Position numbers and translations under genes: made by a program. Below the pieces are notes generated by a model. That model had not been told where the DNA came from. It saw only the letters and a program-made list of their open reading frames with translations, and ran no database searches. DNA of 63,999 nt, the filler included, from Chlamydiia bacterium (GTDB lineage Bacteria > Chlamydiota > Chlamydiia > Chlamydiales > FEN-1388): NCBI GenBank assembly GCA_903848235.1. It is 9 parts of 9 records of this genome, joined end to end, with 100 filler letters (N's around TTAATTAATTAA, not from the genome) between each part and the next. Parts side by side here need not be neighbours in the genome. Positions count along the whole stretch, not along the records: positions 15,907 to 17,775 come from CAINFV010000043.1; 8 more parts are not named here. One strand, given 5' to 3'. Positions 14,464 through 17,775 of this stretch are shown piece by piece. Each line of letters begins with the position of its first letter. Position 1 is the stretch's first letter.

Positions 14464-15806
14464 GGGTCTTTCGTATTTTAGTTGATAAGGATTTATAAAG
14501 GCATCGGATAACACCTTTTTCTGGTAAATTATTTTTGGGAAAACAAACTACCGGGAGGTGTATCCGATGCATATGAAGACTATCACAGAACTGCTGAATC
14601 TTCCAAAGTATAAGGTGAAAAAGGTCATTGAGATTACTGATGAAAGCCTGCACCTGGAAGTGACGCCCAAGGAAAAAGAACCACCTATATGCTCAGCCTG
14701 CATGATGGTTCATAATACAAAGATTCATAGCAGGCAGGAAGTAGTTGTCGAGGATATGTGGATGTGCAACAGGAAGGTCTTTCTTCATATTGTCAAAAGA
14801 AAGTCCATATGCATTGAAGACGAAACAATAAGGACAGAACATATTCCCGATCTGCTTGGCAGAAACACGAAGAGATTTTCCGAACATGTTTACAGGCTGA
14901 CATCTATCACCACCAATAAAGAAGCAGGTTGGTTTCTGGGAATCGATGATGAAAGGGTCTATCGAATAGATAAAACCATGCTTGAACAGCTGGCAAAAGA
15001 ACGGCTTGATCCTGTGCCTATTCCGAAACACATGAGTGTTGATGAAGTCGCATGGCAGAAATGGCACAAGTATGTCACCAATGTTGTGGACACTGATTCC
15101 AGGATGGTCATCTGGAACCACCAGGGAAGAGGAAAAGCTGTCTTGGACAAGTTCTATCACAAGCTTGGGAAAGAAAACCGCAAAGAGATAAAAGCCGTTG
15201 CCAGTGACGGAGCAAGGGGTTTCCTCAAATCCACAAGGGAACACACTGATGCGCTGATTGTCCTCGATCATTTCCATGTGAAGATGTACCTCAATAACGC
15301 TCTTGATGCTGTCAGAAAAGAAGAGCTCAAAAAGGCAAGAAAGCAGGAAAACCGTGAACTTGAGGGCATACTCCATTGCAATCAGAGATTCATTATGATG
15401 AAAAACAAGCCTTCCAAGAAGAAAGAAAACATCCTTGAAACTCTTTCACGTCTCAATCAGCGTGTCTATGAAGCAATGCTTCTTAAGGACCAGTTCATTG
15501 AAGTGTATAATGCTCCAAACAAGAAAGCAGCAAGCGTACTACTCGGGAAGTGGATCGTCTCTGCCATAAAGTCGGGAATAAAACCATTTGTGCAGTTGGC
15601 TGACAAGTTCTTCCGTAAGAGACATTATATCCTTAATATCTTCGAACACCGCATCTCTACTGCGATCTCAGAAGGTATTAACAACAAAATCAAAAGGCTA
15701 AGAAGAATGGCTTACGGTTATAGAGATGTCCATTACTTCCTGTTGAAAATCCATCAGCATTGTGGCTTGCTAAATCCTAAGTTATCAACTTAAACACGAA
15801 AGATAG
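14464..15806 (+). mobile_element. ISL3 family insertion sequence
   Basis: Imperfect 25-bp terminal IRs GGGTCTTTCGTATTTTAGTTGATAA (14464-14488) / TTATCAACTTAAACACGAAAGATAG (15782-15806) flank the transposase. Confidence 0.85.
14558..15793 (+). CDS. ISL3 family transposase
   Basis: CxxC zinc finger, SVDE, ASDG, LDHFHV and SEGINNKIKRLRRMAYGYRD. Confidence 0.92.
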   Translation: MYPMHMKTITELLNLPKYKVKKVIEITDESLHLEVTPKEKEPPICSACMMVHNTKIHSRQEVVVEDMWMCNRKVFLHIVKRKSICIEDETIRTEHIPDLLGRNTKRFSEHVYRLTSITTNKEAGWFLGIDDERVYRIDKTMLEQLAKERLDPVPIPKHMSVDEVAWQKWHKYVTNVVDTDSRMVIWNHQGRGKAVLDKFYHKLGKENRKEIKAVASDGARGFLKSTREHTDALIVLDHFHVKMYLNNALDAVRKEELKKARKQENRELEGILHCNQRFIMMKNKPSKKKENILETLSRLNQRVYEAMLLKDQFIEVYNAPNKKAASVLLGKWIVSAIKSGIKPFVQLADKFFRKRHYILNIFEHRISTAISEGINNKIKRLRRMAYGYRDVHYFLLKIHQHCGLLNPKLST

Positions 15807-15906: not shown

Positions 15907-16533
15907 ATCCATGTCTTGTAGGGTTGCCTCCCGGTTCTTCTGGTAATCGTCATTGGCAGAGTCGATGGTGATTGCTTTGTTGAAGCAGGTCAAAGCCTCC
16001 TGATATCTTTTCATTTCCCGGAGGACGACACCTTTATTATTCCAGGCGGTGGGATCTTGAGGCTTGATTTGAGTGGCTTTTTCAAAGCATTCCAGGGAGC
16101 CGGAAAGGCTGCCTTCACCGGCCAGAGCCATGCCCATTCCTGTCCAGGCATCAAAATAAGAGGGATTTGTCTGCAGGATCTGGTTGAAGATGACAATAGC
16201 CTCACGGTTTCTATTTAATCCTCGGGAGAGTGCAATTGCTTTCAGGTTTGAAGACTCGGGATTGGAGGCGTTGATAGCAATCGATTTATCAAAACAAGCG
16301 ATGGCATCGTCAAAGCGGCGCATCATGCCCAGTGCTCTTCCCTTATTATTCCACAGCTCCGTGCTGTTCGGCTCCTGCTCCAGGGCCTTGTCATAGCTTG
16401 CAGCCGCTTTTTCAAAGTCGCCCGAGATGAAGTACCCATTTGCCTGATCGGACCAGAACTGTGCCGATTCTCCCATTGCCGGCAGAACATATATCGCCGC
16501 CAGCACCGCGATAATAGTAATTGCAAGTTTCAT
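15907..16533 (-). CDS. Secreted TPR protein, methanogen-like (3' end cut)
   Basis: Signal peptide MKLAITIIAVLAAIYVLPAMG; repeated (L/A)WNNKG TPR units. Confidence 0.85.
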
Positions 16534-16616
16534 AGAGAACCTTTCTTTAACGAAGGGGTAAATATCTCTACCCCTTGGCTTTGCAACCAATTGCAAAAAA
16601 AAGCGCTTGACTTAAC

Positions 16617-17168
16617 CTACCCGTCATCTTTTTTGATTTTCTCCATAAACGTGTTCCATTTTCTCGCCTCGTTAACCTTTCGCCGGGTCAATTCCTCAGC
16701 GTCGTACTCTGTCAGAGTGCCATGTTCTTTCTTCTTCAGGATATCATTGAAGTCCAGAAGCGCTCTAATTATACTTGCAGCTTCATCATGAAGCGCTAGT
16801 GCCTGTTTTTGGGTCAGCTTTGCCACCTTGAGATCTTCCTCATCGATCTTCTCTTTTTTCTCCAATATCTCGATCAACTCGGCAATTTGCAGCCGCTCTT
16901 TCTCTGTGATCTCTTTTTCGTTAATCAATCTCCAGATGAGACTGTGTAGCTCTACTAGGCCCTGCCCGGCATTAATCTCAGGTGGGAGATCCTTTTCACT
17001 CTGATGAAACTTTTTCATCTCGCTTTTTAGATCATTGCCATCGATCTGCATCTGCTCCGGCTCTTTCACCCCTACCCATACCAAAACGTGATGAAGACTG
17101 GCCAGGAGCTTTTTGCGTTCCGCTTCAGTCAGATAGTCGATGATGTCATTTTTTTCAATTTCAGACAT
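16617..17168 (-). CDS. Conserved archaeal hypothetical protein (DUF5788-like)
   Basis: ERKKLLASLHHVLVWVGVKEP start and ARKWNTFMEKI end resemble a euryarchaeal family; coiled coil. Confidence 0.6.
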   Translation of the reverse strand: MSEIEKNDIIDYLTEAERKKLLASLHHVLVWVGVKEPEQMQIDGNDLKSEMKKFHQSEKDLPPEINAGQGLVELHSLIWRLINEKEITEKERLQIAELIEILEKKEKIDEEDLKVAKLTQKQALALHDEAASIIRALLDFNDILKKKEHGTLTEYDAEELTRRKVNEARKWNTFMEKIKKDDG

Positions 17169-17193
17169 GAATCCTCGTTCTAATCGGGGCGGC

Positions 17194-17206
17194 AAAAGTT
17201 TTATAG
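17194..17206 (+). promoter_or_regulatory. Putative archaeal BRE/TATA box
   Basis: AAAAG-TTTTATAG about 25 nt upstream of ATG 17230, the spacing expected for a leaderless transcript. Confidence 0.55.
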
Positions 17207-17229
17207 CTATGCATGCAATGCTATGGTCT

Positions 17230-17286
17230 ATGACACACGAAAGCTCTGTGGGGAATCGTCTTCTACGACGTTCGTTCACTCGTTGA
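17230..17286 (+). CDS. 18-aa uORF MTHESSVGNRLLRRSFTR overlapping the leuA-like frame
   Basis: ATG 17230 to TGA 17284-17286; tandem Leu codons CTT-CTA at 17260-17265. Confidence 0.5.
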   Translation: MTHESSVGNRLLRRSFTR

Positions 17287-17775
17287 TGAAAAGGTCCGCA
17301 TTTTTGACACCACTCTCAGGGATGGCGAGCAGACTCCGGGCGTATCTCTCACCCAGGACGAAAAGCTCAAGATCGCCAGGCAGCTTGACAAACTCGGTGT
17401 GAATGTTATCGAGGCCGGATTTCCCGTATCCTCCAAGGGGGAGTTTGACAGTGTCCGGAAAATCGCTGGGGCGGGCCTGCGGGCCCAGGTCTGCGGCCTC
17501 TCCCGCATTGTGAAAAAGGATGTCCAGGCCTGCCTTGATGCCGATGTGGGCATGGTGCATGTCTTCGTTCCCACCTCCGACATCCAGATAGCTCATACTA
17601 TTAAGAAGAGCCATGACGAGATAGTGGCCAAAGCTATGGAGACGGTGCAGTTTGTCAAGGACAACGGCAGAACATGTCTCTTTTCTGCCATGGATGCCAC
17701 CCGCACCTCGCCGCAGTTTTTGCATCGCATCTTCCGGGCTGTGCAGGAGGCGCACTGCGATATCATCAACATCCC
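17234..17775 (+). CDS. leuA: 2-isopropylmalate synthase family enzyme (LeuA-like); no canonical start codon; 3' end cut
   Basis: Frame open from 17234: KVRIFDTTLRDGEQTPGVSL, IEAGFP, HVFVPTSD, FSAMDATRT; the catalytic RDGEQ lies upstream of the first GTG (17399). Confidence 0.8.

Follow-up and report, generated by a model that had tools for sequence, protein, structure and literature searches.

In bacterial leuL attenuation, a short leader with one or more Leu codons, upstream of leuA, reports the supply of Leu-tRNA. The frameshift systems closest to the archaeal leuA locus described here are treated in sections of a 2016 review (PMC5009743). In prfB, a short first ORF leads to a P-site CUU (sometimes UUU) that re-pairs in +1 next to a slow A site, with feedback on the gene's own function and a Shine-Dalgarno (SD)-like sequence upstream. 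In antizyme (ornithine decarboxylase), the frameshift is both sensor and effector of metabolite feedback, polyamines being sensed at a stop codon with mRNA and nascent-peptide stimulators. Yeast Ty1, ABP140 and EST3, together with hungry-codon shifting, share a P-site CUU followed by a slowly decoded sense codon in the A site. The same sections leave open whether hungry-codon shifting is put to use, and the archaeal cases they list (viral genes, magnesium chelatase and a possible Sulfolobus case) include none that senses an amino acid. A first-pass annotation of the present locus had taken it as established that prfB and Ty1 shift +1 at a P-site CUU with a slow A-site codon, in agreement with these sections (PMC5009743).

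A missing start codon has been reported for haloarchaeal leuA2 (HVO_1510) by Pfeiffer and Dyall-Smith (2021; PMC8305020), who offered either a CTG start or an out-of-frame ATG with slippage and speculated on leucine control. In the parts of that paper that deal with HVO_1510, no shift site, direction or sensor codon is named and CTG initiation is left open; they treat haloarchaea only and cover neither methanogens nor an isoleucine version on cimA. The shift is foreshadowed in print for this one lineage (PMC8305020). Our literature search, which for the most part did not extend to subscription journals, turned up no publication in which the site, its methanogen cases or the isoleucine version is named, and the uORF motifs and locus tags had no match in the portion of the supplement data of the H. 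volcanii Ribo-seq study (Gelsinger 2020; PMC7261190) that was searched.

Here we analyse the 5' region of a leuA gene in a window of 63,999 nucleotides, made up of contigs chained with N spacers. We propose, with a probability of roughly 0.7, that LeuA is made by a +1 ribosomal frameshift at CUU-CUA (17260-17265) that rises when leucyl-tRNA is scarce, because the enzyme frame lacks a canonical start before its catalytic motif and lies one base off a conserved ATG. From its layout, the site would most likely work like the sensor frameshifts of prfB and antizyme but without the A-site stop codon of prfB: the A-site signal is not UGA but a sense codon (Leu) for the pathway end product, the P-site codon varies much more, a strong SD-like element is confined to some lineages, and the gene is archaeal. 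Unlike antizyme, the site would sense a single aminoacyl-tRNA, and the search for RNA structure gave none. Whereas Ty1-type and hungry-codon sites are set by tRNA abundance or are side-effects of starvation, the leuA codon matches the enzyme's own pathway. In contrast to leuL, no separate enzyme start, alternative hairpins or terminator were found, there is a single sensor codon, and the archaeal leader would become the N-terminus of the enzyme.

The gene lies on contig C43 of the MAG G000, which carries a TPR gene, a DUF5788 gene and the 5' half of leuA and is 91.6% identical in DNA to the Methanothrix locus L007 across its whole 1869 bp. A contig search of G000 found C43 to be the sole contig matched by archaeal loci, the C43 leuA protein had a match in 0 of the 12 searched relatives of the MAG, and the listed contamination of G000 is 4.85%. 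In a tetranucleotide comparison C43 ranked 6th of 284 contigs towards Methanothrix, the separation not being clean. C43 is probably Methanothrix DNA mis-binned into an unrelated non-archaeal MAG. Its features are as follows.

15907-17775: contig C43 of G000, Methanothrix-like (from its DNA identity to L007 and the lack of a protein match in 12 relatives)
16617-17168, minus strand: DUF5788-family gene, divergent from leuA; context only, outside the switch
17191-17205, plus strand: BRE-like purine run and TATA box TTTATA (17200-17205), the box 30 nt before the uORF ATG
17230-17286, plus strand: 18-codon uORF, placed in the -1 frame with respect to leuA, the predicted true start of the enzyme
17231-17233, plus strand: TGA stop of the enzyme frame, overlapping the uORF ATG (17230-17232)
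17248-17259, plus strand: conserved lead-in, Gly-Asn-Arg in the uORF ([DGN]-[RCYH] elsewhere), with weak anti-Shine-Dalgarno complementarity
17260-17262, plus strand: predicted P-site slip codon CUU, which would re-pair on UUC (17261-17263)
17263-17265, plus strand: predicted A-site sensor codon CUA (Leu), assigned from the conservation of Leu in relatives
17264-17773, plus strand: leuA enzyme frame from the first codon after the predicted shift onward, cut by the contig end at 17775
17306-17332, plus strand: DTTLRDGEQ motif, which precedes the first canonical start of the enzyme frame

The basic reading of the first-pass annotation was borne out on the sequence: the enzyme frame is closed by TGA 17231-17233 and has no ATG, GTG or TTG until GTG 17399, after DTTLRDGEQ; a TATA-like box precedes ATG 17230, which opens the 18-codon uORF one base out of phase; and CTT-CTA provides the only Leu codons of the uORF, which ends in tandem TGA TGA (17284-17289). 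Given the usual archaeal distance from TATA box to transcription start, a box 28-31 nt before the ATG would mean a leaderless mRNA. The box begins 28-31 nt before the ATG in 51 of the 61 Methanotrichales-like loci with a box match, and from this spacing the leuA mRNA is predicted to be leaderless or near-leaderless. The RNA runs, whose data are contigs, contain just 0.12-0.13 of the words. Entropy by codon position in the uORF (0.63/0.33/0.52) is not clearly like that of the -1 frame, so that little protein-level selection is visible in the early uORF.

The first set of relatives comprised 48 loci, two of them bacterial with normal starts and two (L040 and L048) not scorable. All 44 scored archaeal relatives have the out-of-frame ATG and the same site, and the changes in ATG-to-site length among them are multiples of 3 (+9 in L002, L004 and L007; -3 in L046). 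Closed chromosomes such as L012 share the phase; the L012 frame is intact over 522 codons, and variation downstream of the site falls on enzyme-frame wobble positions. Contigs of 4 runs (contigs, not raw reads; run X1 may be the source sample) contain no indel at 17229-17300; a +1/-1 combination at 17352/17356, seen in one X5 contig, is the only indel pair they have. The small size of C43, its truncation at either end and its probable mis-binning would suit an assembly error or a pseudogene, but the identical phase in relatives and closed chromosomes, the intact frame with its wobble variation and the run contigs leave this explanation a negligible chance. The 1-bp assembly error that had been listed as an alternative is ruled out by the conservation of phase: the observation is real, conserved and not an assembly error. 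The closest relative, L001 (2285-3542, against window 15908-17775), lacks the DUF5788 gene and has the TPR gene immediately ahead of the leuA promoter, while its promoter-uORF unit is the same as on C43. The DUF5788 gene is present in 9 of the 46 loci L001-L046.

For a wider comparison, 5' regions were sampled within the class and the phylum to which G001 belongs and within the G182 class, as a hand-spread subset of the matches (40 further regions of 118 class matches, 40 of 149 phylum matches and the top 30 halophile-class matches), and CimA-like loci (40 + 30) were added, giving 164 leuA, 71 cimA and 5 aksA loci after removal of duplicates. The genome searches covered the archaeal phylum of Methanothrix itself, which we take to be Halobacteriota. 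Group labels (Methanosarcinales-like, Halobacteria-like and so on) were assigned by similarity, GC content and the class or phylum searched, and the Methanosarcinales label is anchored by the M. mazei gene. Sites were anchored on the three codons before the sensor, with the sensor left free; the pattern was written after the loci had been inspected, and kin among them are not independent.

The site could be anchored in 142 of the 164 leuA loci of this subset, and the sensor encodes Leu in 142 of 142 (CTA 66, CTT 36, TTA 35, CTC 2, TTG 2, CTG 1), so that each of the six Leu codons is represented. Upstream of the site, 141 loci have an open ATG in the -1 frame, as against 14 for the enzyme frame and 20 for the third; a short first ORF with its own start thus overlaps the main ORF in the -1 frame in 141/142 loci here and in 44/44 of the first set. 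The slip codon before the sensor is CTT (69), TTT (44), GTT (28) or ATT (1), and this N-T-T in 142/142 loci stems in part from the search pattern itself. All 135 leuA loci placed on the tree have TTY as the overlapping +1 codon (CTT, TTT, GTT or ATT, then Y), leaving the P-site codon able to re-pair in +1, with the N-T-T again part of the pattern. The tandem CTT-CTA had been put forward as the signal. Its second half stood, as the Leu sensor is conserved throughout, whereas tandem Leu as such had to be rejected with CTT as first codon in only 69/142 loci; across the loci compared, the conserved element is 'N-U-U (slippable) + one Leu codon'.

On the leuA tree the sensor codon changes 8 times and its amino acid 0 times. 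The enzyme-frame residue that overlaps it has 6 changes (Y, F, C, S, W), and at the next uORF codon there are 25 changes of amino acid; the corresponding counts for cimA are 4, 0 and 6. These counts leave out L117, L204, L205, L226 and L233. Because with CUA or UUA second only the first codon re-pairs one base on, we infer for these sensors that the slip occurs at the first codon, with the Leu codon in the A site. In lineages with a CTT sensor, a shift one codon later is also possible. Leu is nearly absent earlier in Methanotrichales-like uORFs (1 of 581 residues). Since an enzyme-frame Phe codon with any T-initial codon after it produces a -1 frame Leu in 6 of 8 cases, the number of Leu sensors taken by itself is too strong an argument, and the weight of the comparison falls on the swap of amino acid in CimA, the phase of the ATG and the upstream stops.

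It is also conceivable that part of the mRNA loses one base, and so regains the frame, through RNA polymerase slippage or RNA editing. Methanosarcina-like loci do have T runs of 5-7 at the site, but the present locus and the halophile loci have none longer than two there, and a contig from a related RNA library (X15 record 9) spans 17229-17388 gap-free, although it may derive from DNA and contigs drop rare variants. We regard this explanation as very improbable.

Of the anchored leuA loci, 97/142 (45/65, 17/28, 26/28 and 9/21 by group) have no in-frame ATG, GTG or TTG between the uORF start and DTTLRDG. The other 45 do have some in-frame canonical start, which could bypass the shift; many Methanosarcina-like loci have an in-frame ATG 27 nt before the motif, and M. 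mazei MM_1284 is annotated with an ATG. A canonical in-frame start no more than 57 nt from the motif is present in 21 of the 22 leuA loci in which the site was not anchored. Some loci have a degenerate or broken site (in L119 and in L117, the latter one of the 142, the site is degenerate and a uORF start is lacking; L387 keeps the site without a -1 frame ATG; the cimA loci L204 and L205 have a Val sensor, an in-frame ATG and no uORF start); such cases of a lost -1 start, an extra base or Val are possibly losses or assembly errors.

Initiation at a non-AUG codon of the enzyme's own frame, ATC 17255 or CTG 17246, could also yield LeuA, with the overlapping uORF regulating by a stall at the Leu codon. 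ATC or ATT occupies the 17255 position, two codons before the site, in 122/142 loci, the RefSeq start of M. mazei MM_0671 is ATC, and a conserved CTG in Haloferax was offered by Pfeiffer and Dyall-Smith in their treatment of HVO_1510 (PMC8305020). Yet the remaining 20 loci have GTC, ACT or AAC in place of ATC/ATT, CTG is found at the 17246 position in only 56/142, and an enzyme-frame stop lies within 5 codons of the site in 22 loci, so that neither of these starts, both raised by the first-pass annotation, is general. A ribosome stalled at the Leu codon would moreover cover the ATC or CTG, and the invariant re-pairable NTT-Y or GAA-A would be left unexplained. According to the proteomic part of PMC8305020, the HVO_1510 peptide expected from such a start was not found in ArcPP, and the tryptic peptide over Glu-45/Phe-46 was 'remarkably' missing from H. 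volcanii proteomes, as would be expected because a shift at this site would remove it. Non-AUG initiation thus seems unlikely.

The window protein matches PF00682, an HMGL-like TIM barrel with DTTLRDGEQ. Against NF002085, whose cut-off is 517 bits, its relative L012, full-length at 522 codons, reaches 697 bits, but a CimA-like paralogue of L012 also exceeds this cut-off (639 bits), so NCBIfam does not separate LeuA from CimA, and the Methanothrix genomes searched have up to three close paralogues each. We therefore compared active-site motifs and a tree, in which three clades are separate. The leuA clade has H-x-F, FSAMD and N-[IV]-PDT, and its VHVF/FSAMD/INIPDT align with IHTF/FSCED/INIPDT of the solved IPMS 3rmj; the paralogues have HLV/ELSGED/C[FY]CDT or SVF/FSAED/SVADT. 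The window protein stops just before PDT, and its third motif was taken from relatives 91-97% identical to it. Short halophile proteins with the EFF motif described for HVO_1510 fall in the leuA clade, and HVO_1510, as treated in PMC8305020, belongs to the same orthologue set by our tree and by its EFF motif. The other halophile paralogue, with 37-39% identity to the leuA-clade one, falls in the second clade (HLV, ELSGED, C[FY]CDT). The passages of PMC8305020 on HVO_0644 report isoleucine auxotrophy upon its disruption and a similar level of identity to the leuA2 protein; we named the second clade CimA because it holds this HVO_0644-like paralogue. On these motifs and the tree, the window enzyme is identified as the 2-isopropylmalate synthase LeuA (EC 2.3.3.13), its active-site motifs being of LeuA and not of CimA or AksA type. 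The third clade, which is short, we presume to be AksA.

The first-pass annotation had held that identity as CimA or AksA, together with no Leu response, would count against the reading, but the CimA-like loci turned out to have the same layout with Ile in place of Leu. In 61 of 71 cimA loci the site could be anchored, with Ile as sensor in 57, Val in 2 (L204 and L205) and mis-picks in 2; the site was found in 0 of 5 aksA loci. The enzyme frame at the cimA site reads TTA-TTY or AAA-TTC, and TTA makes up 1.3% of Leu codons in halophile cimA and 4.5% in Methanotrichales-like cimA. Because the TTA it would need is so rare in the halophile genes, selection on the enzyme frame fails to explain the Ile, and from these counts the kept feature is the -1 frame Ile codon. 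Seven halophile cimA loci (L225, L227-L229 and L234-L236) have a GAA-ATT-C variant with an Ile sensor, in which GAA would slip to AAA; the other halophile cimA loci have TTT-ATT with a 6-codon uORF. Re-pairing in +1 is weaker for TTT or ATT to TTA in cimA. In the Methanosarcinales-like cimA loci L261-L272 there is a tandem ATT-ATT with an in-frame stop just upstream, and the uORF starts with GTG or ATG four codons before, or with CTG in three loci; M. mazei MM_0671, whose RefSeq start is the ATC mentioned above, is the cimA orthologue.

Ordinary starts for the cimA paralogues were considered and rejected: the in-frame ATG arises from the uORF codons AAT-GCG, and it is missing in 6 of 21 Methanotrichales-like cimA loci. 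L294 and L395 have leuA and cimA in a head-to-head arrangement, a uORF with a Leu sensor preceding leuA and another with an Ile sensor preceding cimA, and in both records the leuA frame closes after about 91-97 codons. A further case is L354:2-547 (minus strand), downstream of a homoserine dehydrogenase, where a citramalate synthase of TIGR00977 type (TIGR00977 being its best match, with 33% identity to the archaeal LeuA/CimA set) has a -1 uORF with TTT-ATT (Ile). This suggests that the module may move between enzyme families.

A real +1 shift could also occur at a fixed ratio set by a rare codon, damping expression without any response to leucine. The sensor codons are rare among Leu codons of leuA in each main lineage (CTA 0.6%, TTA 2.9%, CTT 3.0%), and thus by usage in three lineages, as measured by codon counts; CTA makes up 5.0% of Leu codons in neighbouring Methanothrix genes. 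According to the section of PMC5009743 on Ty1, that element has a constitutive shift of about 40% where CUU is followed by a rare codon. But a fixed ratio needs no match to the pathway, and yet Leu is found on leuA in 142/142 and Ile on cimA in 57/61 loci, as well as on the unrelated citramalate synthase of L354. In the 'other' group, moreover, the sensor CTT is common (19% of Leu codons). We therefore consider a fixed-ratio shift improbable, and a shift that responds to leucyl-tRNA remains the preferred reading.

A metagenome scan with the sensor codon left open yielded at least 119 loci, with 110 distinct rows among the matches listed, 97 of these in -1 phase. Close kin of the first sample make up many of the rows, and the scan is for that reason a partial replication. 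Fifty-eight of the listed rows have at least 55% identity to a reference. Among these matches, all 40 LeuA-like rows have Leu, 39 of them with a -1 frame ATG (L387 lacks it), and all 12 CimA-like rows have Ile. Ile was also seen in three short listed fragments whose best match is LeuA: L382 carries the CimA motif, L380 shares the lineage of L382, and L315 (31 aa) is not assignable to the LeuA or CimA clade. The remaining listed rows at or above 55% are one spurious 42-residue match (Gln) and two bacterial-like rows (Gly, Val). The 39 distant rows among the matches listed have no Leu and a single Ile, that of L354.

Taken together, the out-of-frame AUG, the Leu codon, the LeuA-type motifs and the absence of an indel at the site support the leucine-sensing frameshift proposed by the first-pass annotation, and its prediction that the AUG and Leu codon would be conserved in leuA 5' regions held. 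Ribosomes would start at AUG 17230 on a leaderless mRNA, as the promoter spacing suggests, and after 11 codons the codon order would place CUU in the P site and the rare Leu codon CUA in the A site. With enough Leu-tRNA, CUA would be read and an 18-residue peptide released at the stop at 17284. When Leu-tRNA is short, the ribosome would pause, the peptidyl-tRNA would slip from CUU to UUC, the next codon would be UAC 17264 (Tyr), and full-length LeuA would be made with the uORF product as its N-terminus. More LeuA would restore leucine and shut the shift down. On cimA, an Ile codon would sense isoleucine likewise.

More broadly, and with somewhat less assurance, we favour the view that out-of-frame start and four-codon slip site form a portable and ancient archaeal module, its last codon naming the amino acid sensed. 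Such a module would gate leuA (Leu) and two unrelated kinds of citramalate synthase (Ile) in methanogens, ANME-like lineages and halophiles, as a natural hungry-codon feedback switch in the role that attenuation has in bacteria.

The uORF might instead act as a leader peptide without any frameshift, its stalling or termination altering mRNA folding, transcription or downstream re-initiation. The layout resembles that of bacterial leaders, the uORF stop falls 0-10 codons from the sensor, many relatives have a downstream in-frame ATG, GTG or TTG, and a hairpin over the site is possible in Methanothrix. On the other side, the 97/142 loci without a canonical start before the catalytic motif include the present one, the ATG that overlaps the stop of this uORF (17285) belongs to the third frame and not to that of the enzyme, and the sensor is a single codon and not a run. 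Neither a promoter nor a terminator-like site was found in a bacterial-type scan of this archaeal locus, there was no Rfam match in the contig at E up to 5, and 0 of 19 predicted pairs covaried in a consensus structure from 18 Methanothrix-like sequences. We hold leader-peptide control alone to be improbable.

The hairpin predicted in Methanothrix-like loci covers the site and the uORF stop (17259-17289) and has no covariation support. Because none of the 19 predicted pairs covary, no 3' stimulator is claimed for the candidate shift. A 'leuA-Halobacteria' RNA motif has been described in the literature. It was absent from Rfam scans of the contig and 8 relatives and from our literature search, and Rfam at gathering score returned only tRNA in the 8 relatives; the suggested comparison with known archaeal leuA leader RNA motifs thus produced no match. 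Duplex energy between the lead-in and the 16S tail (from G001) is -5.5 kcal/mol here and in Methanotrichales-like loci, where 19% of CDS windows are as strong. In Methanosarcinales-like loci its median of -9.9 kcal/mol exceeds in strength almost every CDS window; taking in the 'other' loci, the medians are about -9 to -10 kcal/mol. A nascent-peptide role for the [DN]-R of the lead-in is possible.

If the proposed shift is true, frameshifting would do in archaea what attenuation does in bacteria, and a published annotation problem, the start of haloarchaeal leuA2, would become a base-precise, testable mechanism that also takes in methanogens and isoleucine synthesis. Database entries for many leuA and cimA genes of archaea would have wrong N-termini or pseudogene flags, heterologous expression would have to supply the right start, and archaeal genetics would gain an amino-acid sensor of very small size. 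Versions for further amino acids may be concealed in other archaeal genes whose annotation is startless or broken.

For M. mazei leuA and cimA, the supplements of Tufail 2024 (PMC11456600) that cover them give gene-level values only. Translation efficiency of MM_1284 is 21.2, fourth highest among the 141 values listed there, against 1.3 for MM_0671 (PMC11456600). The high value could reflect a pile-up of ribosomes on the uORF or 5' end, or plain high translation, and we do not count it as support.

Elsewhere in the window, an ISL3-family transposase lies at 14558-15793, on the contig adjoining C43 in the window, and the first bases (11-60) recur on 8 G000 contigs and are probably a repeated element.
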